IMG/VR virus record: IMGVR_UViG_2617270945_000014
DNA: 10,350 nt
Source: a virus
Taxonomy: Duplodnaviria > Heunggongvirae > Uroviricota > Caudoviricetes
Direction: 5' to 3' (one strand)
Each line of letters begins with the position of its first letter. Within the stretch, counting starts at the first letter, position 1. This document shows positions 83 through 10,287 of the stretch, piece by piece. A model generated the notes under the pieces. The model was given only the letters and a program-made list of their open reading frames with translations, made no database searches and was not told the origin of the DNA. The position numbers and the translations under genes are program-made.

Positions 83-520
83 TTGATGGATAAACCTACA
101 GACTGGCGCTCCGGAACCCGCCGGATATTTTCTAATGAATTTAAACTTCATATGGTTGAACTGGCTTCGAAACCAAATGCCAATGTTGCACAACTGGCCC
201 GGGAACATGGCGTTGATAACAACCTGATTTTTAAATGGCTACGCCTCTGGCAAAGAGAAGGACGTATTTCTCGTAGAATGCCTCCAACTATTGTAGGCCC
301 TACAGTATCACAATCTTTTCCGGCCTCTCCGACTCTGGTTCCAGTGGAACTTATCGACACCCCGCGCTGTGCTACAGATGCTCCTGCTCCGGGGGCATTA
401 TCAGTTGCTTGTGCAGCTTCCTGCCATGTGGAATTCCATTACGGTAAAATGATGCTGGAAAATCCTTCACCAGAGCTGCTCACGGTGTTGATCCGTGAGC
501 TGACCGGGAGGGGACGATGA
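83..520 (+). CDS. tnpA: IS66-family accessory protein TnpA (orf1)
   Basis: 145-aa ORF, first gene inside the IS; its stop overlaps the start of the next ORF (ATGA at 517-520), as is usual for IS66 orfA/orfB. Confidence 0.8.
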   Translation: MMDKPTDWRSGTRRIFSNEFKLHMVELASKPNANVAQLAREHGVDNNLIFKWLRLWQREGRISRRMPPTIVGPTVSQSFPASPTLVPVELIDTPRCATDAPAPGALSVACAASCHVEFHYGKMMLENPSPELLTVLIRELTGRGR

Positions 521-867
521 TTTCACTCCCATCAGGTACCCGTATCTGGCTCGTTGCCGGCGTTACTGATATGCGTAAATCCTTCAACGGTCTGGGGGAG
601 CAGATACAGCATGTGCTGGATGATAACCCCTTCTCCGGTCACCTGTTTATCTTCCGTGGCCGACGGGGAGACACGATTAAAATCCTGTGGGCTGATGCTG
701 ATGGTCTGTGCCTGTTCACCAAACGCCTTGAGGAAGGTCAGTTTATCTGGCCTGCGGTGCGTGACGGTAAGATATCCATTACCCGCTCGCAACTGGCAAT
801 GCTCCTCGATAAGCTGGACTGGCGTCAGCCAAAAACATCCCGCCTTAACGCACTGACAATGTTGTAA
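517..867 (+). CDS. tnpB: IS66-family accessory protein TnpB (orf2)
   Basis: 116-aa ORF with the characteristic IS66 Orf2 sequence (…IWLVAGVTDMRKSFNGL…FIFRGRRGD…KILWAD…), translationally coupled to orfA. Confidence 0.85.
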   Translation: MISLPSGTRIWLVAGVTDMRKSFNGLGEQIQHVLDDNPFSGHLFIFRGRRGDTIKILWADADGLCLFTKRLEEGQFIWPAVRDGKISITRSQLAMLLDKLDWRQPKTSRLNALTML

Positions 868-897
868 AAAACGCCGGGCCGGATTATAAAAACGGCC

Positions 898-2511
898 ATG
901 AGTCAGAAATACCTCATTCGCATCGCTGAGCTGGAAAGGCTGCTCTCTGAGCAGGCTGAAGCCCTCCGTCAGAAAGACCAGCAACTGAGTCTGGTTGAAG
1001 AGACGGAGGCCTTCCTGCGCTCTGCACTGGCACGTGCCGAAGAAAAGATCGAAGAAGATGAGCGAGAAATAGAGCATCTGCGGGCTCAGATAGAAAAACT
1101 GCGCCGGATGCTGTTCGGAACCCGTTCTGAAAAACTGCGTCGTGAGGTTGAACAGGCTGAAGCCCTGCTGAAACAACGCGAGCAGGAAAGCGATCGTTAC
1201 AGTGGGCGTGAGGATGACCCGCTGGTTCCCCGCCAGTTGCGACAGTCGCGCCATCGTCGTCCGTTACCGGCACATCTCCCCCGTGAAATATACCGCCTGG
1301 AGCCTGAAGAAAGCTGTTGCCCGGAGTGTGGCGGTGAGCTGGATTATCTGGGGGAAGTCAGCGCAGAACAACTGGAACTGGTGAGCAGCGCCCTGAAAGT
1401 GATCCGCACAGAACGGGTAAAAAAAGCCTGTACAAAATGTGACTGCATCGTTGAAGCACCGGCGCCGTCCCGCCCGATAGAGCGTGGTATCGCGGGCCCC
1501 GGATTACTTGCCCGCGTGTTAACGGGAAAATACTGCGAACACCTGCCACTGTATCGTCAGAGTGAAATCTTTGCCCGACAGGGTGTCGAACTGAGCCGTG
1601 CATTACTCTCCAACTGGGTTGACGCGTGCTGCCAGTTAATGACGCCGCTGAATGATGCCCTGTACCGTTATGTGATGAATACCCGCAAGCTTCACACTGA
1701 CGACACACCGGTAAAGGTACTGGCACCGGGCCTGAAAAAGACGAAAACAGGGCGCATCTGGACGTATGTCCGGGATGATCGCAATGCGGGTTCGTCATCT
1801 CCTCCGGCGGTCTGGTTCGCGTACTCATCGAACCGGCAGGGGAAACACCCGGAGCAACACCTCCGCCCCTTCCGGGGTATCCTGCAGGCGGATGCGTTCA
1901 CAGGTTATGACAGGCTGTTCAGTGCAGAACGTGAAGGTAGTGCGCTGACAGAAGTTGCGTGCTGGGCTCATGCCCGGAGAAAAATCCACGATGTATACAT
2001 CAGCAGCAAAAGTGCGACGGCAGAAGAAGCCCTGAAGCGAATCAGTGAACTGTACGCCATCGAGGATGAAATACGGGGATTACCAGAGTCAGAGCGTCTT
2101 GCAGCCAGGCAGCAGCGAAGCAAAGCGTTACTGACGTCGCTGCATGAATGGATGGTGGAGAAGAATGGCACGCTGTCGAAAAAATCCAGACTGGGCGAAG
2201 CGTTCAGCTATGTACTGAATCAGTGGGACGCCCTCTGTTATTACAGTGATGACGGTCTGGCGGAGGTGGACAATAACACAGCGGAAAGAGCGCTTCGTGC
2301 AGTCTGTCTCGGAAAGAAAAATTACGTGTTCTTCGGTAGCGATCACGGCGGCGAGCGTGGAGCACTGCTGTACGGGCTGATCGGCACCTGCCGTCTGAAC
2401 GGTATCGATCCGGAAGCGTATCTGCGCCATATTCTGAGCGTACTGCCGGAATGGCCCTCCAACCGTGTTGACGAACTCCTGCCATGGAACGTAGTACTCA
2501 CCAATAAATAA
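898..2511 (+). CDS. tnpC: IS66-family transposase (orf3/TnpC)
   Basis: 537-aa ORF with an N-terminal coiled-coil/leucine-zipper-like region, a CxxC…CxxC zinc-finger-like motif (CPECGG…CTKCDC) and a DDE-type core, which is the IS66 transposase architecture. The stop lies 30 bp before the right IR end. Confidence 0.9.
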   Translation: MSQKYLIRIAELERLLSEQAEALRQKDQQLSLVEETEAFLRSALARAEEKIEEDEREIEHLRAQIEKLRRMLFGTRSEKLRREVEQAEALLKQREQESDRYSGREDDPLVPRQLRQSRHRRPLPAHLPREIYRLEPEESCCPECGGELDYLGEVSAEQLELVSSALKVIRTERVKKACTKCDCIVEAPAPSRPIERGIAGPGLLARVLTGKYCEHLPLYRQSEIFARQGVELSRALLSNWVDACCQLMTPLNDALYRYVMNTRKLHTDDTPVKVLAPGLKKTKTGRIWTYVRDDRNAGSSSPPAVWFAYSSNRQGKHPEQHLRPFRGILQADAFTGYDRLFSAEREGSALTEVACWAHARRKIHDVYISSKSATAEEALKRISELYAIEDEIRGLPESERLAARQQRSKALLTSLHEWMVEKNGTLSKKSRLGEAFSYVLNQWDALCYYSDDGLAEVDNNTAERALRAVCLGKKNYVFFGSDHGGERGALLYGLIGTCRLNGIDPEAYLRHILSVLPEWPSNRVDELLPWNVVLTNK

Positions 2512-2930: not shown

Positions 2931-3086
2931 TTACTCCTCAGGTTCGTAAGCTGTGAAGACAGCGACCTCCGTCTGGCCGGTTCGGAGTCGTACCTCGCAG
3001 AGGTCTTTCCTCGTTACCAGTGCCGTCACTATGACGGTTAAACAGATGACGATCAGGGCGATTAACATCGCCTTTTGCTGCTTCAT
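2931..3086 (-). CDS. hokD: Hok/Gef-family type I toxin (small membrane-depolarising peptide), HokD/RelF-like
   Basis: 51-aa product MKQQKAMLIALIVICLTVIVTALVTRKDLCEVRLRTGQTEVAVFTAYEPEE, recognised from memory as near-identical to E. coli HokD/RelF and close to Gef/HokC. It has one transmembrane helix and the conserved Cys. Start taken at the internal ATG (3084-3086) rather than the 70-aa in-frame extension. Confidence 0.9.
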   Translation of the reverse strand: MKQQKAMLIALIVICLTVIVTALVTRKDLCEVRLRTGQTEVAVFTAYEPEE

Positions 3087-3323
3087 AGCCTGCTTCCCCT
3101 TGCCTTTCGGCACGTAAGAGGCTAACCTACATTTGTGAGACATAGATTGGGCCTCAGATTAATGTTAAGCGTCTTGCAGGACGCGAAATGTTAACTGGGG
3201 CTTTTCTCTATCTGCCTTTCAGTGTTCATGCCTGAGACAGATAGCCTCAAGCACCCGCAGCCATTCTACTTAACTCACGTCACCTCGCCAATATGAAATC
3301 AATCAGAAAGGTGATCCATAAAA

Positions 3324-4010
3324 TCACTCCTTCTCTTCTTTTCCGTAGTGGAGTTGGCCAATTTTGATAAGAGGGCGTCCCTGAGATTTGCGGTGTAGAT
3401 TGGTATCGCGCAGAGAATACACACAGCCACAATATTCCTGCTGATAGAATTTTTCGCGCTTGCTGATTTCAATCATACGGGACGAGCCGCCCTGCTTGCG
3501 CCAGTTATAATCCCAGTACACCATACCCGGATAATGCGCAACAGCTCGCCGCCCACACTCGTTAACCTGCTGCATATTTTTCCAGCGTGAAATGCCCAGT
3601 GAACTGCTGATCACACTGAAACCATTTTCAGCAGCGTACAACGCTGTCCGCTCAAAACGCATGTCAAAACACATGGTACAACGGATCCCCCTCTCAGGCT
3701 CCCATTCCATTCCTTTGGCACGTTCAAACCAGTTGTCGGTGTCGTAATCAGCATCGATAAACGGCACGCCGTGTTGTTCAGCAAAGCGAATATTTTCATC
3801 CTTACGAATTAAATACTCTTTCTGAGGATGAATGTTCGGGTTGTAGAAAAAGATGGTGTAGTCGATTCCCGAGGCCTGAAGCGCCTCCATCACTTCACCG
3901 GAACATGGAGCACAGCAAGAGTGCAGTAGTAGTTTGTTTGCCCCGTTTGGGAGCTCCAATTTAGGCCGTTTGAAATCAGCAATAGTCATAAATATTTTTA
4001 TTGGGGTCAT
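3324..4010 (-). CDS. queH: QueH-like epoxyqueuosine reductase homologue (DUF208 family); start codon uncertain (3989 or 4010)
   Basis: 228-aa ORF with motifs recalled for the QueH/DUF208 family: N-terminal [27 protein letters not shown] and C-terminal [11 protein letters not shown] (Cys-rich Fe-S ligand pattern). Neither candidate ATG has a clear Shine-Dalgarno sequence. Confidence 0.65.
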
Positions 4011-4163: not shown

Positions 4164-4589
4164 CTAGTAACGTCTAAAATACCTAACATTTCCTTGATAA
4201 AATGCCAGTACACGCTGCATAGCTTCGCTCTTCCGGCACTCGCGACAGATTATATTCAGGCGCCTGTCGTAGCGGCGTATTTCGCCGTCTGGTAACGACC
4301 AGATAAGGTCCGGATCAACCACTGCAGGTTTCTTCACCTTTGCCCTTGAGAGTTTTTTGCGAGCATTTTGCCAGTCCTTACGCGCCTGTTCAGACGGGAA
4401 TAACCCGTAACCAGAGTTGTATACATCGCCACTGGCAACCAGCTCTCTGGCGAGAACACTCATCAGATATCTTGTCGCACCTGTCCTGGCTTCCAGTTGC
4501 CGCAACGTCTCGCGACCGCTCAGACGTACAAGTTCAACAACCTGCCCTTTAATTTTTTCCCGCTCTTCTTGTGTAAATACTTTTGCCAT
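4164..4589 (-). CDS. Ren-like protein (lambda ren family) with an extended N-terminal region
   Basis: C-terminus NIICRECRKSEAMQRVLAFYQGNVRYF resembles the lambda Ren C-terminus (…FKECRQSAAMKRVLAVYG…) as recalled. It sits after the replication genes, as ren does in lambda. Start at ATG 4589, preceded by GGAGG; the ORF track's start at 4604 is a TTG. Confidence 0.6.
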   Translation of the reverse strand: MAKVFTQEEREKIKGQVVELVRLSGRETLRQLEARTGATRYLMSVLARELVASGDVYNSGYGLFPSEQARKDWQNARKKLSRAKVKKPAVVDPDLIWSLPDGEIRRYDRRLNIICRECRKSEAMQRVLAFYQGNVRYFRRY

Positions 4590-4604
4590 AAGCGCCTCCG
4601 GCAA

Positions 4605-5375
4605 TCACTTTTCCGATACAACACGGCGGGAAGAATCAGTAATCTGTCGAACAATATCCCGGTGCTTGTTCAGCTCCCGCAGCGCGGCGCAGACTCGCTC
4701 CCACTTCTGAACATCACTTTTCGCCCTGCGCAGCGCCAGGTTTGCCCTGCGAAGGGACGGAAAAATCAGCTCATCTGCTTGCGTTTCGGTAAACGATGGC
4801 AACGGCTGCACAATGTCCGCCACAGTTTCTGTTTTAATTTCTTCCTGTGTTGCGGCTTCCCGGACTGGTAACGCAGCACCTGCTGGCTGAGGAAAGGCCT
4901 TACCATCACTTTCCGTTACCAGCGCGGCTTTCGGCTCTGCTGGTAAATTATCGCCCGGCATGCAGTAACGAAATTTACCGTTCTGATTAACGCGTGCCAG
5001 CCGCCCCGTTGCGGTTACCACCGCCAGCGTGGAAGCAACCTTGCGAGTACTGACACTGAACTTACCCGCCAGTTCCTCACACGTTTTAGCCCCATCCTGA
5101 CCGATAAACTCAATCATCATGTCTGCGGTAACTTTTTGTTCGACCTCCCCGGTCAGCATATCCTGTGCTTCAGATTTTACTGGCCGCTCTTCGGTTACCC
5201 GGGATTCACCTTCGCCAGCCAGAAACCAGGTGTGACCAGTTTTATCAACGACGCCTTTTCTTTTGAGTTCCCACAGCTCGTTGACAGCCTCTTCACGACT
5301 GATTCCAAGGCGAGCTGCCACCACATGTGAAGAGGCTTTTTTCAGTGCTTTCAGTGCGTCAGATACGGTTTCCAT
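4605..5375 (-). CDS. Hypothetical prophage protein with two winged-helix-like segments (possibly DUF1627-type)
   Basis: 256-aa ORF with a GGAGGA Shine-Dalgarno sequence 8 nt upstream. Its stop abuts the start of the Ren-like gene, suggesting an operon. Function is unknown; the DUF1627 label is a weak recollection. Confidence 0.6.
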   Translation of the reverse strand: METVSDALKALKKASSHVVAARLGISREEAVNELWELKRKGVVDKTGHTWFLAGEGESRVTEERPVKSEAQDMLTGEVEQKVTADMMIEFIGQDGAKTCEELAGKFSVSTRKVASTLAVVTATGRLARVNQNGKFRYCMPGDNLPAEPKAALVTESDGKAFPQPAGAALPVREAATQEEIKTETVADIVQPLPSFTETQADELIFPSLRRANLALRRAKSDVQKWERVCAALRELNKHRDIVRQITDSSRRVVSEK

Positions 5376-5396
5376 TAAAATTTCCTCCGGACAAAA

Positions 5397-6143
5397 TTAC
5401 TTCACAACCCTCATATTGCTGACATTTGGACGCCAGCTATCCCAGTTAAACGTCACCCATCGACCACCGTTCATGGTCATGCGGTCCATAATCCTCTCAC
5501 CAAGAAGCGTACTCATTGCGGCATGATTCAGGTTTGTTAACATCCCGACACTGCACAGTGATGCTGTCCGGCGATCAATTATCTGGTGCAATACCACCTG
5601 CTCGTTTTTCGTCTCCCGCTGAACGCCTATTTCATCCAGGACCAGCAAATCAACCCCGCAAAGCTCCTGTAAAAATTTTTCCCCGGATTTGCCGTTGTCG
5701 TAGCTGTCATGCAACACGCTCATGACGTCAGACACGGTGACGATAATCACGCTGCGCCCCTTCACCATCAGCCGGTTGCCCATCGCCGCTGCAAGGTGAT
5801 TTTTCCCGGTGCCGGTTTTACCGCTGAACACAAAATTCGTGCACCCGGTCATCAGTTCGTCAGCTATGGATTTGGCCTGGCTCAGCGCGTATTTTTGCCC
5901 GTCGTTCTGCACCTGATAATTTGCAAACGAGCATTTGCTGTGCAGAGGCTGGATGCCCGAACGATTCAGGATTTTTTCCACCCGCAACTGGCGATTCTGG
6001 CGGTTAATCTCCTCGCTGCGTTTTCGTCCTTCAGCAAGTTGCCATTCCCGCCACTCCTCCACCGTCCGGTACGGTGGAACCGACCCCTGTGGTGCAAGTC
6101 TGCGAATACGTTCAAGAACCCCAACTGCCGCAATGTTTTTCAT
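5397..6143 (-). CDS. DnaC/IstB-like AAA+ replication helicase-loader (Rac YdaV-like, lambda P functional analogue)
   Basis: 248-aa ORF with Walker A (GKTGTGKNHLAAA) and Walker B (DLLVLDEIG) motifs, located immediately downstream of the O-like initiator gene. Confidence 0.85.
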   Translation of the reverse strand: MKNIAAVGVLERIRRLAPQGSVPPYRTVEEWREWQLAEGRKRSEEINRQNRQLRVEKILNRSGIQPLHSKCSFANYQVQNDGQKYALSQAKSIADELMTGCTNFVFSGKTGTGKNHLAAAMGNRLMVKGRSVIIVTVSDVMSVLHDSYDNGKSGEKFLQELCGVDLLVLDEIGVQRETKNEQVVLHQIIDRRTASLCSVGMLTNLNHAAMSTLLGERIMDRMTMNGGRWVTFNWDSWRPNVSNMRVVK

Positions 6144-6149
6144 GACACG

Positions 6150-7112
6150 TCACCCCCTGAATCCCGGCGGTATTTCAGTGTCCGGTTCAGAAATGTGATT
6201 CACGCAACGCTGCGCAGGCGAACGCCCCAGGCGGATAACCAGTTCATCCCATTTTTCCCGGAGTTTTGCCGGACTCATGATGTTTTTTACCCAGAACGAA
6301 TCCCGCTGGAGACGCCCAAACATTTCACAAATTTGTCTGTGAGTTCTGCCATCCAGCATCCGCATTGTGCGAACGTCATTGGCCCATGCTGTCCAGTTGG
6401 GTTCTTTCGGTCTAGTGATCTCGCCATCATAGCTGGCCGCCTGCTCGTAAAGACTCACGATTCGTCCCCAGATCCACTGTGCGCACACCAAATCTTCCTG
6501 ACTTCCCCACTGGCGTTTTTTCGCACTGAACACAACCGCGTCAGGGTGTCGGGTTAAAAAATCCTGTTCAGCCGTCTGCGGGTCCGGTTGCGAAGCGTCC
6601 GGACAAGAAGATCTTTTATCTGACGGATCAGGTTTTAATACTGACGGATCGGGGTCAATCATCGCCCCCCTAATCGGCAGTTTTTTATCAACAGTTGATC
6701 CATCAAAATTTGACGGGTCAACCGTTGAGGGGGCAATATTTGACGGGTCAACTGTTAACGGGTCATTTTTTGCCGGGCTAATTTTTCTTTTCGGTTTATA
6801 TGACTCACGCGCCGCCGCCGCAGCTGCTTCGAGTTTTTCCACATTAAGCCGATAGATATTGCTTACATTACGCCCACCGACCTTACGCTCTTCCTTCGTC
6901 AGCCAGCCCTCTTTCGCCAGTTCTGCAATAGCCGATTTCACTGTGGATTCACTTCTTGCACCGATCTGACGCCGGATAGTTTCAATGGCAGGCCATGACA
7001 CGCCCTCGTCATTGCTGTAGTCTGCAAGACGGGCCATAACCGCCACCCTGGATAAGATCATGCCGGTGAAGGCGCACCCTTCCCAGACAAGACCATGAAG
7101 CTTGCTGCTCAT
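6150..7112 (-). CDS. Replication initiator, lambda O-like (Rac YdaU-like); N-terminal HTH domain and internal repeat region
   Basis: About 320 aa from the first ATG at 7112 (the ORF track's longer start at 7127 is a GTG). The N-terminus has a winged-helix-like segment (WPAIETIRRQIGARSESTVKSAIAELAKEGWL). The middle contains peptide repeats (TVDPSN…TVDPSN…TVD) encoded by the DNA iterons. Confidence 0.8.
   Translation of the reverse strand: MSSKLHGLVWEGCAFTGMILSRVAVMARLADYSNDEGVSWPAIETIRRQIGARSESTVKSAIAELAKEGWLTKEERKVGGRNVSNIYRLNVEKLEAAAAAARESYKPKRKISPAKNDPLTVDPSNIAPSTVDPSNFDGSTVDKKLPIRGAMIDPDPSVLKPDPSDKRSSCPDASQPDPQTAEQDFLTRHPDAVVFSAKKRQWGSQEDLVCAQWIWGRIVSLYEQAASYDGEITRPKEPNWTAWANDVRTMRMLDGRTHRQICEMFGRLQRDSFWVKNIMSPAKLREKWDELVIRLGRSPAQRCVNHISEPDTEIPPGFRG
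6684..6790. repeat. Putative replication origin: ~30-bp-period iterons inside the O-like gene, followed by an AT-rich tract
   Basis: Palindromic cores TCAACAGTTGA (6688-6698), TCAACCGTTGA (6718-6728) and TCAACTGTTAA (6748-6758) are spaced exactly 30 bp apart. TTGACGGGTCA occurs at 6710-6720 and 6740-6750. An AT-rich stretch follows at about 6776-6800. This matches the ori-lambda arrangement of iterons within the O gene. Confidence 0.7.
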
Positions 7113-7134
7113 AAAACCCCCGAACACCGTGCTT

Positions 7135-7560
7135 TTAGTGCATCACCACAGCATTCCCTGCCGGGCCGCCGCGATTCATCTGGTCATACAAAACAACCGC
7201 TGACGCAACAAAATCATCGACATCCTTCCCCAGCCGATCCCTCCGTTCGACGATCTCACGGTAATATTCAGAACTGTGGCTGCGCATACGGGCCACCAGC
7301 AAAGGCGGCATCGCCTTTTCGATCGCCGGTAACAGAGCCTGCATTTTTTCAACAGCATCAGGGGTGTCTTTCTCTACCCAGCGGAAAATTTTCTGGGTAT
7401 TGCGAGCCAGGGCTTCCGGATGGCTGTCGTCATACAGTTCCGGGAACGTCATACCCAACTCAAAATAAGCCTGGGTTATTCCAGCTGCTGGAACTTTTTC
7501 GCCATCAGGACGCGCCCAGGCATTCATCGCCATGCGGATGTGTTCATGCTTGATTTTCAT
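7135..7560 (-). CDS. YdaT-like protein (Rac prophage YdaT family; in the cII position)
   Basis: 141-aa ORF with AGGAG 9 nt upstream of ATG 7560, overlapping the end of the YdaS-like gene by 17 nt. Size and position match Rac ydaT. Sequence identity is recalled, not searched. Confidence 0.65.
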   Translation of the reverse strand: MKIKHEHIRMAMNAWARPDGEKVPAAGITQAYFELGMTFPELYDDSHPEALARNTQKIFRWVEKDTPDAVEKMQALLPAIEKAMPPLLVARMRSHSSEYYREIVERRDRLGKDVDDFVASAVVLYDQMNRGGPAGNAVVMH

Positions 7561-7825
7561 GAATCAAGCTCCTAGAAAGTGGTTGTGTTAACGTTTTGGT
7601 ATCTTCCAGCTCGGGCCAAATATTCATCCAATCAAAAGGCCTTAGTTGCTGACGTGTAACTTCACCATTACTGGCTCGCTCAATAAGGACACATAACGAT
7701 GCCCCTAACACTTGACCTTTACTCAATGCCTTTCTTAGATAACCGATGCTGGTACCACACTCGCATGCAAACATACGCTGTTCATCTGACGAAAGAGAAT
7801 TGAGAAATATTCTTAATTCTTCCAT
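7544..7825 (-). CDS. Cro-like HTH regulator (YdaS/DicC-position), first gene of the early-right operon
   Basis: 93-aa ORF with AAGGAG 7 nt upstream of ATG 7825. It is divergent from the repressor gene and contains an HTH-like segment (CGTSIGYLRKALSKGQ). Confidence 0.7.
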   Translation of the reverse strand: MEELRIFLNSLSSDEQRMFACECGTSIGYLRKALSKGQVLGASLCVLIERASNGEVTRQQLRPFDWMNIWPELEDTKTLTQPLSRSLIHENQA

Positions 7826-7854: not shown

Positions 7855-7930
7855 TACCCACAGGTAAACAAAAGTCAATACCCATAGGTTGTTTACCTTG
7901 CGGTAATCGCATCTATTATTTACCTATGGA
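7855..7930. promoter_or_regulatory. Divergent promoter/operator region between the cro-like and repressor genes (OR-like)
   Basis: Three copies of a 12-bp dyad motif: TACCCACAGGTA (7855-7866), TACCCATAGGTT (7879-7890) and TACCTATGGA (7921-7930, overlapping the repressor ATG). There is also a perfect 10-bp inverted repeat, AGGTAAACAA (7862-7871) / TTGTTTACCT (7889-7898). Confidence 0.65.
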
Positions 7931-8345
7931 CAAATATGAATTTAGACGACAGCAACTCATCAAAATTCGTGATGAGAAATGCGATGGTAAAGCGGTTAAC
8001 GTGGCCAGAAAGATCGGGCGCGAGCCTTCTTATGTATCAAGAATGTTGTACCCAGAGGGGAAAAAGGGAAAAAAACGGATCGCTGATGATATGGTGGAGA
8101 TTATCGAAGAGTCCTTTGGGTTACCCCGGGGATGGATGGATGGTATCGTTTCATCATCAACGAACACAGCCTCCAGTTATGAAACAAGGGTTCTAACGCC
8201 ACGACAACGTATTTTTTTAGATCTCTTAGACGAACTGCCAGAAAGTGAAGCGGATAAATTATTAAAAACTCTTGAAGAGAAAAAACAGTATTACAATATG
8301 ATCTACGAAGAAATCCGTAAAAAGAAAGCACAAAACGCATCATAG
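7926..8345 (+). CDS. Prophage repressor, DicA/RacR-like HTH protein (no S24 peptidase domain)
   Basis: 139-aa ORF divergent from the cro-like gene. It has an N-terminal HTH-like region, and its C-terminal LPESE…LL motif resembles DicA (…LPESEQ…) as recalled. No Shine-Dalgarno sequence precedes the ATG, so the mRNA may be leaderless. Confidence 0.7.
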   Translation: MDKYEFRRQQLIKIRDEKCDGKAVNVARKIGREPSYVSRMLYPEGKKGKKRIADDMVEIIEESFGLPRGWMDGIVSSSTNTASSYETRVLTPRQRIFLDLLDELPESEADKLLKTLEEKKQYYNMIYEEIRKKKAQNAS

Positions 8346-9683: not shown

Positions 9684-9741
9684 TTTCTGGTGACGTTTGG
9701 CGGTATCAGTTTTACTCCGTGACTGCTCTGCCGCCCTTTTT
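9684..9741 (+). ncRNA. dicF: DicF small RNA (ftsZ-targeting sRNA of Qin/Kim-type prophages); 5' end approximate
   Basis: Sequence TTTCTGGTGACGTTTGGCGGTATCAGTTTTACTCCGTGACTGCTCTGCCGCCCTTTTT matches DicF as recalled. It ends in an intrinsic terminator and lies immediately upstream of dicB, as in K-12. Confidence 0.75.
9699..9741 (+). terminator. Intrinsic terminator forming the DicF 3' end
   Basis: GGCGG (9699-9703) … CCGCC (9731-9735) stem, followed by TTTTT (9737-9741). Confidence 0.65.
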
Positions 9742-9910: not shown

Positions 9911-10099
9911 ATGAAAACGTTATTACCAAACGTTAATACGTCTGAAGGTTGTTTTGAAATTGGTGTCACTATCAGTAACCCTGTATTTACTGAAGATGCC
10001 ATTAACAAGAGAAAACACGAACGGGAGCTATTAAATAAAATATGCATTCTTTCAATGCTGGCCCGTTTACGTCCGATACAAAAAGGATGCTGGCAATGA
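9911..10099 (+). CDS. dicB: Cell-division inhibitor DicB (MinC-dependent)
   Basis: 62-aa product MKTLLPNVNTSEGCFEIGVTISNPVFTEDAINKRKHERELLNKICILSMLARLRPIQKGCWQ, matching DicB as recalled. GAGGG lies 8 nt upstream of the ATG. Confidence 0.85.
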   Translation: MKTLLPNVNTSEGCFEIGVTISNPVFTEDAINKRKHERELLNKICILSMLARLRPIQKGCWQ

Positions 10100-10287
10100 A
10101 TACAGCATTTGCACTTGTTCTGACAGTTTTTCTTGTTTCCGGAGAGCCAGTTGATATTGCAGTCAGTGTTCACAGGACAATGCAGGAGTGTATGACTGCA
10201 GCAACCGAACAGAAAATTCCCGGTAACTGTTACCCGGTCGATAAAGTTATTCACCAGGATAATATCGAAATCCCGGCAGGTCTTTAA
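10096..10287 (+). CDS. ydfD: YdfD-like small lysis-associated membrane protein (63 aa)
   Basis: MNTAFALVLTVFLVSGEPVDIAVSVHRTMQECMTAATEQKIPGNCYPVDKVIHQDNIEIPAGL with an N-terminal transmembrane helix. Its start overlaps the dicB stop (ATGA at 10096-10099), and AAGGA lies 9 nt upstream. Confidence 0.75.
   Translation: MNTAFALVLTVFLVSGEPVDIAVSVHRTMQECMTAATEQKIPGNCYPVDKVIHQDNIEIPAGL

Follow-up and report, generated by a model that had tools for sequence, protein, structure and literature searches.

Genetic work in 1980 defined lambda ren: its mutants show poor growth on Rex+ lysogens, and suppressors of this defect lie in O and P (Toothman and Herskowitz 1980, as cited in bioRxiv 10.1101/2021.04.19.439022). 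The same source states that lambda O, P and ren are co-translated and that a ren gene is carried by all initiator-helicase-loader modules; its supporting information (Thomason et al.) reports that RexA and RexB each interact with O and Ren in a bacterial two-hybrid (BACTH) assay. In lambda, ren is dispensable for plaque formation. YdaW, encoded in the Rac prophage of Escherichia coli K-12 (b1361), has been listed as a predicted E. coli transcription factor without a known function, and its strain-dependent length was discussed in a 2022 paper (PMC9308461). An overexpression screen listed ydaW, together with racC, dicC, yfjH and yjhC, as prophage genes that block the retron-Sen2 toxin RcaT (Bobonis et al., bioRxiv 10.1101/2020.06.22.160242). 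Here we analyzed two adjacent genes related to ren and ydaW in a virus sequence of 10,350 nucleotides (nt; IMG/VR record IMGVR_UViG_2617270945_000014, hereafter the window), which comes from a Rac/Qin-type lambdoid prophage of E. coli whose early-right (pR-type) operon lies on the minus strand. Both genes probably encode accessory winged-helix proteins of the replication module of a Rac/Qin-like prophage and represent independent modules rather than a co-evolved pair. A first-pass annotation of the sequence had reported two co-oriented minus-strand open reading frames (ORFs) of 256 and 141 amino acids (aa), and their coordinates and lengths were correct:

4605-5375, minus strand: DUF1627 / YdaW-family gene, 256 aa plus stop (Pfam PF07789, PHROG 630)
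4164-4589, minus strand: DUF977 / LygF gene, long form of the Ren family, 141 aa (from the ATG) plus stop (Pfam PF06163, PHROG 142)

Over profile positions 1-113 of 116, the 141-aa protein matched PHROG 142 ('Ren-like exclusion protein'; E 5e-46); the match of lambda Ren (NP_040633.1) to this profile spanned positions 11-110 (E 1.6e-41). When an alignment of 13 diverse DUF977 representatives (31-65% identical to the 141-aa protein) was compared by hhalign with an alignment of 13 Ren-family proteins, both being shallow (Neff about 2-3), residues 27-134 were paired with Ren 17-95 at a probability of 96.6% (E 4.8e-10). BLASTP aligned the C-terminal segment only, residues 112-131 with Ren 73-92, at 12/20 identities (60%, E 5e-7). 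The C-terminal similarity to Ren noticed in the first-pass annotation was therefore real, and lambda Ren, given there as about 96 aa, is indeed 96 aa long. However, the likeness was not limited to the C-terminal 30 or so residues, as had been proposed, since the PHROG 142 match was near full-length and the hhalign pairing spanned Ren 17-95. The long N-terminal extension described for the protein was also wrong: only about 10 residues are extra at the N-terminus, and the hhalign pairing showed that the N-terminal region is a winged helix that Ren also has. The profile comparison suggested in that annotation thus detected homology to Ren, and stronger homology than it had supposed. Of the 45 residues beyond the length of Ren, approximately 10 are N-terminal, 29 lie in the linker and 6 are C-terminal. 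By these comparisons the 141-aa protein is a true Ren homologue along the whole of Ren, and its additional residues are mostly a linker insertion. Three parts were distinguished along it:

4365-4559, minus strand: winged-helix domain, about residues 11-75; aligns with Ren residues 17-57 and has PDB profile matches
4275-4364, minus strand: basic linker of variable length and sequence, about residues 76-105; largely missing in lambda Ren
4197-4271, minus strand: C-terminal Ren motif, residues 107-131; Y-D-R-x-x-N-I-I-C-x-E-C-R-x-S-x-x-M-Q-R-V-L-A-F-Y

In the winged-helix block, hhalign paired residues 27-57 of the 141-aa protein with Ren 17-47. A PDB profile search with the DUF977 alignment retrieved winged-helix chains (MntR, PKZ Z-alpha, AsnC/Lrp and GntR; E 1e-3 to 1e-2), and lambda Ren had weak matches to MarR_2 and HTH_Crp_2; a plain sequence search of the PDB with either the 141-aa or the 256-aa protein found no relatives. 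A winged-helix fold for DUF977 had been inferred already in 2009 by HHpred/COMPASS (PMC2686095). The linker varied in length and sequence among the DUF977 representatives and corresponded to the gap region of the hhalign alignment with Ren. The C-terminal motif was invariant among DUF977 representatives with an overall identity of 31-40%; the invariant columns were Y107, N112, C115, E117, C118, R119, S121, M124, R126 and F130. The Ren family conserves N73, F76, E78 and C79 in its C-terminus, overlapping this invariant core, and the motif common to both families was N-x-[IV]-x-x-E-C-R-x-S-x-x-M-x-R-[VI]-L-A-x-Y. The window protein carries C-x-E-C where Ren has F-x-E-C, the second cysteine being shared. 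A zinc-finger reading of C-x-E-C was considered and rejected, because no more than two cysteines are invariant, further conserved ligands are lacking, and the first cysteine is replaced by F in Ren.

The match to Pfam DUF977 (PF06163) scored 97.4 bits against a gathering cutoff of 22.1 and covered profile positions 1-133 of 134; it was obtained at residues 6-140 of the 146-aa ORF that starts at an upstream TTG, i.e., residues 1-135 of the 141-aa protein. All close homologues contained PF06163. The protein was 100% identical to RefSeq WP_001151165.1 ('DUF977 family protein') and is a typical member of the family known as DUF977 or 'LygF' in Salmonella Enteritidis and many Escherichia phage records; phage records name the 141-aa homologue either LygF or 'Ren-like exclusion protein'. 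A literature search for 'LygF' returned only unrelated lysozyme and peptide papers and Salmonella genome notes; the name carries no functional information. The family was narrow, with 102 of 1.8 billion representative clusters matched at E <=1e-3, many of them fragments. A scan of genome contigs with one strict peptide pattern, a poor guide to the true taxonomic range, gave 12 loci in Escherichia, Shigella, mis-binned metagenome-assembled genomes (MAGs) and one Enterobacter. DUF977 genes 90-93% identical to the E. coli one were carried by contigs of MAGs assigned to Collinsella sp. and Veillonella parvula (L085, L086, L088); these contigs almost certainly come from E. coli prophages and were mis-binned.

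The 256-aa protein, 100% identical to RefSeq WP_000450999.1, matched Pfam DUF1627 (PF07789) with 325 bits (cutoff 28.1) and PHROG 630 with an E value of 7e-132. Its residues 1-154 aligned with K-12 YdaW (residues 1-151) at 54% identity (E 4e-54), and it is the full-length form of YdaW. The two share the DUF1627 family and the synteny ydaS-ydaT-ydaU-ydaV-ydaW. K-12 YdaW, unlike the intact window copy, has neither the disordered linker nor the C-terminal helix, and the DUF977 gene expected after it has been lost. In K-12 a deletion in Rac truncated the protein after about residue 151, and about 35 codons at its end read through into unrelated sequence (locus L096, 3753-4313), whereas intact Rac-type prophages have the order ydaS-ydaT-ydaU-ydaV-DUF1627-DUF977. 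The difference in YdaW length between strains is simply this Rac deletion. An equation of YdaW with DUF977 was considered and rejected, as YdaW aligned with the DUF1627 protein and had no similarity to the DUF977 protein. Because K-12 ydaW belongs to DUF1627 and not to DUF977, the published retron-blocker result concerns a tandem winged-helix protein. RacC, the RcaT blocker that was studied mechanistically, is an unrelated 91-aa protein, and the ydaW-RcaT result is not linked to DUF977.

An AlphaFold2 (AF2) model of the 256-aa protein was built on a 44-sequence alignment; the single-sequence prediction was unusable, with a mean predicted local distance difference test (pLDDT) score of 47. Three ordered parts were predicted:

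5214-5375, minus strand: first winged helix, residues 1-54; helices 4-11, 16-23 and 27-39, strands 13-15, 43-46 and 49-52; pLDDT 86-93
4956-5138, minus strand: second winged helix, residues 80-140; helices 84-94, 99-106 and 110-123, strands 127-131 and 134-138; pLDDT 84-89
4611-4763, minus strand: long C-terminal helix, residues 205-255; block-mean pLDDT 85, 91 and 83 over residues 211-240

Each winged helix was modeled with three helices and a two-strand wing. Residues 56-79 and 145-196 were modeled as disordered linkers (the latter with pLDDT <50), and the C-terminal helix is a probable oligomerization element in the model. The two winged helix-turn-helix segments that had been suspected in this gene were thus recovered at pLDDT 84-93, and Foldseek against the PDB matched the model with the tandem winged-helix proteins SelB, ScpB, ESCRT-II and DDRGK1/UFL1. 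Single winged-helix matches by Foldseek included MarR, the ArsR-type SrnR/NolR, FeoC and Z-alpha (root-mean-square deviation [rmsd] 0.9-3 Å, 55-65 columns); for the second winged helix, FeoC, SrnR and Z-alpha were matched at rmsd 0.9-2.2 Å over 55-60 columns. Pfam matches below the cutoff were HTH_Crp_2 at residues 18-48 (18.2 vs. 27 bits), FeoC (19.4 vs. 21) and HTH_11 (15.7 vs. 25), with FeoC, HTH_11 and PafC falling at residues 87-133. NCBIfam transcription-factor models scored below their cutoffs (MntR 17.8 vs. 153; ArsR/SmtB 14.5 vs. 55). The resemblance to MarR/ArsR/Crp-type families is at the fold level only. A DUF1627 profile search of the PDB gave nothing below E 0.1, and the BFVD fold search returned generic phage winged-helix proteins only. 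A specific kinship between the DUF1627 and Ren winged helices was examined and set aside as weak and generic, with an hhalign probability of 3.9% to Ren and a PHROG 142 match at E 4e-5; the second DUF1627 winged helix and the DUF977 winged helix gave 64% (E 6e-5). Among PADLOC-DB defence models, no match was obtained for DUF977 or Ren, and DUF1627 had only weak matches in its winged-helix region (CARF3--CARF, E 0.002; Csa3, E 0.009), which do not amount to membership.

The two genes were distributed unequally. In complete E. coli genomes (n=5426, matches at >=80% coverage), DUF977 was present in 3934 genomes (about 72%) and DUF1627 in 1570, while the intact pair was found in 1145 (about a fifth). 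The pair is neither dedicated nor lineage-specific, because the genome counts differ three-fold and each gene occurs without the other; its proposed restriction to one prophage lineage was accordingly not supported. Among 80 IMG/VR loci chosen by DUF977, all with at least 91% identity to the window protein, the order DnaC-like loader, DUF1627, DUF977 was found in 32, and a 220-aa protein, identified as a helicase loader of the lambda P kind (PHROG 109, E 2e-63), preceded DUF1627 and DUF977 in 10. In 28 of the 72 informative loci an O-like initiator was followed by DUF977 with neither a loader nor DUF1627, as in phage mEp460, where DUF977 stands directly after the initiator. One of the 80 loci was broken by an insertion sequence (IS) element and 9 were too short upstream for classification. 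DUF977 variants that were 91-100% identical were partnered by DUF1627 variants of 62-100% identity, with no sign of co-variation. DUF977 and DUF1627 are separable modules with independent distributions, and DUF977 takes the position of ren after the replication genes, whichever these are.

When 79 loci were instead chosen by DUF1627 (>=95% identical), a loader was upstream in all 79 (65 DnaC-like, 14 P-like), and DUF977 was directly downstream in 76/76 uncut loci; these loci are closely related and phylogenetically non-independent, so that the loader association is a lead and not a statistic. Distant DUF1627 genes in Stx2a/PPompW phages and in phage pPE4 lie after a P-like loader and are followed by genes other than DUF977. 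In four more E. coli genomes with Rac-type prophages, the DnaC-like ydaV was directly before DUF1627, and an intact DUF977 downstream was missing in three of the four; strain 00-3076 had a partial 'DNA-binding protein' pseudogene after DUF1627, and the K-12-like strain CV601, with a deleted Rac, had lost DUF977. A loader gene also stands upstream of ydaW in K-12. In every context examined DUF1627 directly followed a helicase loader, DnaC-like or lambda-P-like, and where there was no loader there was no DUF1627. As a lead, DUF1627 travels with the helicase-loader gene, tracking the loader rather than DUF977. The DNA of phage pPE4 (Actinobacillus phage vB_Apl-pPE4, PP818812.1) was 83.5% identical to the E. 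coli DUF1627 gene over 725 bp, and its layout (ydaT, primosomal, P-like, DUF1627, hok) is of the E. coli type; this is unexpected for a Pasteurellaceae phage, and its host assignment (Actinobacillus pleuropneumoniae) is questionable.

Four loci (L026, L027, L056 and L074) had an O-like gene 99% identical to that of the window with DUF977 directly after it. Their sequences diverged from the window exactly at the initiator stop codon and rejoined it at the ribosome-binding site and start of DUF977, the start codon there being GTG, not ATG. The spacer from the initiator stop to DUF977 was 40 nt in loci without DUF1627. The DnaC-like and DUF1627 genes (window 4590-6150, compared with the four loci lacking both) behaved as a two-gene cassette. 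The last 20 codons of the O-like initiator (6150-6212, minus strand; ...EPDTEIPPGFRG) were 95% identical in loci with otherwise unrelated initiators (compared at L023-L042, about 3898-3957), and the C-termini of several distinct PHROG initiator families matched this tail too. The conservation could reflect either a partner-binding tail common to the initiators or a junction of recombination.

Within the window, the DUF1627 stop (TGA, 4605-4607) is followed by a 15-nt spacer and the DUF977 ATG (4587-4589), and one signal was read from the sequence of the spacer:

4595-4599, minus strand: Shine-Dalgarno GGAGG, inside the 15-nt spacer, 5 nt 5' of the DUF977 ATG

The statement that the stop of the upstream gene abuts the start of the Ren-like gene is therefore only roughly correct; an in-frame TTG at 4602-4604 does adjoin the stop. 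RefSeq places the start at the ATG, which has the ribosome-binding site, and each of the two genes has a separate Shine-Dalgarno sequence. No promoter-like or terminator-like sites were found on the minus strand between or around the two genes. As in lambda (O, P, ren), the Ren-like gene follows the replication genes in the rightward early operon, and Ren and the Ren-like protein both have an N-terminal winged helix, the C-terminal motif and a PHROG 142 match. The lambda arrangement differs in that P and ren overlap by 4 nt, whereas the DUF977 start is without overlap and has its own GGAGG; in addition, the window loader is DnaC-like and not P-like, and a DUF1627 gene stands between the loader and the Ren-like gene.

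By analogy with Ren, the DUF977 protein would be produced along with the replication proteins and would act on or near the phage replication initiation complex; phage replication would thereby neither trigger nor be stopped by Rex-type abortive-infection systems of resident prophages. The conserved C-terminal motif may form an interaction surface, and the winged helix and linker may be the part that anchors the protein to DNA or to a partner. The YdaW-family protein could act as a DNA-binding factor or scaffold associated with the loader, and might in addition help to blunt abortive-infection toxins. The ydaW-RcaT result is the sole experimental hint of counter-defence activity in the DUF1627 family. 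A counter-defence role for the two proteins is plausible, if only indirectly, since Ren counters Rex and ydaW was a screen result against a retron toxin. We regard as doubtful, if worth stating, an extension in which both families would serve as 'replication-module guardians', i.e., small winged-helix proteins made with the initiator and loader that mask a signal from the replication complex or neutralize abortive-infection effectors, the Ren motif acting against RexAB-like systems and the YdaW family against toxins of the retron type that phage functions in replication or recombination set off.

Several points weigh against placing the two proteins in the replication module in this manner. 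The mechanistic part is an extrapolation from Ren. The link between Ren and DUF977 draws on PHROG clustering, hhalign with shallow alignments and the C-terminal motif, and lambda Ren obtained no Pfam DUF977 score. RexB-Ren was present in a yeast two-hybrid map in one vector pair only, and four other unrelated proteins scored with Ren, each solely in that NC vector combination (PMC3224144); Ren may be sticky in that vector configuration. In the retron study, the ydaW result is at the level of a screen and concerns the truncated K-12 gene (bioRxiv 10.1101/2020.06.22.160242). DUF977 variants 91-100% identical sit behind three different replication modules, which argues against a tight partner-specific contact with the phage initiator or loader. 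The loader-DUF1627 loci, being close relatives, count as non-independent, and the association could reflect inheritance of a mosaic block. No rexAB was found beside the repressor gene of the window prophage; its absence agrees with a role against heteroimmune prophages resident in the cell.

Three other explanations were weighed against the placement of the two proteins as independent accessories of the replication module. That they form a dedicated two-component anti-exclusion or counter-defence unit special to this prophage lineage, as the first-pass annotation had proposed, is quite improbable. Such a unit would fit two adjacent, co-oriented genes with a 15-nt spacer, the presence of DUF977 directly downstream in all 76 uncut loci with close (>=95%) DUF1627 relatives, and the ties of Ren to Rex resistance and of ydaW to blocking of a retron toxin in a screen. 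However, DUF977 occurs alone after the initiator (28/72 informative loci and mEp460) and DUF1627 occurs without DUF977 (Stx2a/PPompW and pPE4), the genome counts are unequal by three-fold (3934 vs. 1570, pair 1145), and identities of 91-100% in DUF977 against 62-100% in DUF1627 show no co-variation; a pair found in about one fifth of complete E. coli genomes is hence not lineage-specific. It is likewise unlikely that both proteins are ordinary sequence-specific winged-helix transcription factors of the MarR/ArsR kind, controlling phage delayed-early or host genes and having no particular tie to replication or defence. Both proteins clearly have winged-helix folds, HTH_Crp_2, FeoC, HTH_11, MntR and ArsR were weakly matched, YdaW is on the list of predicted E. 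coli transcription factors (PMC9308461), and some database entries call Ren fragments 'MarR family transcriptional regulator'. Yet no transcription-factor family model reached its curated cutoff, and the fold matches include the non-transcriptional tandem winged-helix scaffolds ScpB, SelB, ESCRT-II and DDRGK1. The strongest conservation in DUF977 and Ren lies in the C-terminal motif outside the helix-turn-helix and not in the recognition helix, the position right after the replication genes is kept across different modules, and ren genetics points to O and P.

The adjacency might also be a by-product of lambdoid mosaicism, with recombination junctions flanking the loader-DUF1627 block and the DUF977 start, and with both proteins being dispensable morons of unrelated or no current function. 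This agrees with the clean cassette edges, which fall at the stop codon of the O-like gene and at the Shine-Dalgarno sequence and start of DUF977, and the conservation of the last 20 initiator codons beside DUF977 suggests a recombination hotspot; K-12 Rac tolerates both the truncation of ydaW and the loss of DUF977, and lambda ren is non-essential for plaque formation. Nevertheless, we consider this account very unlikely, as both ORFs are intact, highly conserved in thousands of genomes and equipped with good ribosome-binding sites, and as the DUF977 C-terminal motif is invariant at an overall identity of 31-40%. The presence of DUF1627 behind two unrelated types of loader implies, moreover, that the adjacency was kept through independent exchanges of modules. 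We favor accessory winged-helix proteins of the replication module that assort independently.

Both families were already known: DUF977 and DUF1627 are catalogued, RefSeq holds identical proteins, and they are very common in E. coli prophages. The kinship of Ren and DUF977 is likewise already present in PHROGs and in some phage annotations, while Pfam keeps the families apart. The abundant DUF977 family is the long form of Ren, with a shared core made of the 25-residue C-terminal motif and the winged helix, and this core offers defined residues and many natural variants for work on Rex resistance and replication. Three corrections follow: the homology to Ren is full-length, the extra length is mostly a linker insertion, and ydaW belongs in DUF1627, not DUF977. 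The strict placement of DUF1627 after two unrelated loader types is a lead on its function. The picture of lambdoid prophage organization is unchanged, and the two genes are a routine pair of catalogued accessory genes.

The remaining features of the window were the following:

7926-8345: repressor-like gene, divergent from the early-right operon
7544-7825, minus strand: Cro/YdaS-like gene, early-right operon
7135-7560, minus strand: CII/YdaT-like gene, early-right operon
6150-7127, minus strand: O-like replication initiator (PHROG 391 'replication initiation O-like', E 2e-115)
5397-6143, minus strand: DnaC-like helicase loader, directly upstream of DUF1627 (Pfam IstB_IS21, E 7e-19; PHROG 50 'DnaC-like helicase loader', E 8e-82)
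3324-4010, minus strand: QueH homologue, epoxyqueuosine reductase (Pfam, E 1e-65)
2931-3143, minus strand: hokD/mokW-like ORF (Pfam HOK_GEF, E 1.6e-22)
3081-3256: sok antisense RNA, full-length (Rfam RF01794, 120 bits)
9685-9736, plus strand: DicF small RNA, leftward early region (Rfam RF00039, 76.7 bits)
10042-10287: DUF1482 gene, beyond DicF

The 1212-bp segment with the two genes was 100% identical to chromosomal prophages of several complete E. coli genomes, where they are annotated as 'DUF1627 domain-containing protein' and 'DUF977 family protein'. DUF1391 and DUF1482 genes and the DicF RNA sit past the divergent repressor-like gene, and the identical RefSeq prophage has dicB in the interval from DicF to the DUF1482 gene; DicF, dicB and DUF1482 indicate that the prophage carries a Qin-type cell-division inhibition cassette. 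A complete IS66-family element was present at 83-2511 (plus strand), comprising HTH_Tnp_1 (83-520), TnpB_IS66 (517-867) and the DDE_Tnp_IS66 transposase (898-2511), just past an 82-aa ORF at 2515-2763. Strain STLEFF_47 has the identical prophage, in which this ORF is followed by a DUF968 gene, rusA and the Q antiterminator, showing that the IS66 element interrupts the nin-like region in the window copy. The hokD/sok genes at 2931-3256 form a type I toxin-antitoxin locus. The QueH gene, directly after the Ren-like gene, accompanied DUF977 in many IMG/VR loci and represents a tRNA-modification enzyme as a prophage moron. In E. coli isolate F1140, which has an intact Rac-type prophage (L179, 1-1860), the anti-phage system iteA/iteS is annotated right after DUF977, indicating that the slot downstream of the Ren-like gene, occupied by QueH and hok in the window, can carry defence cargo.

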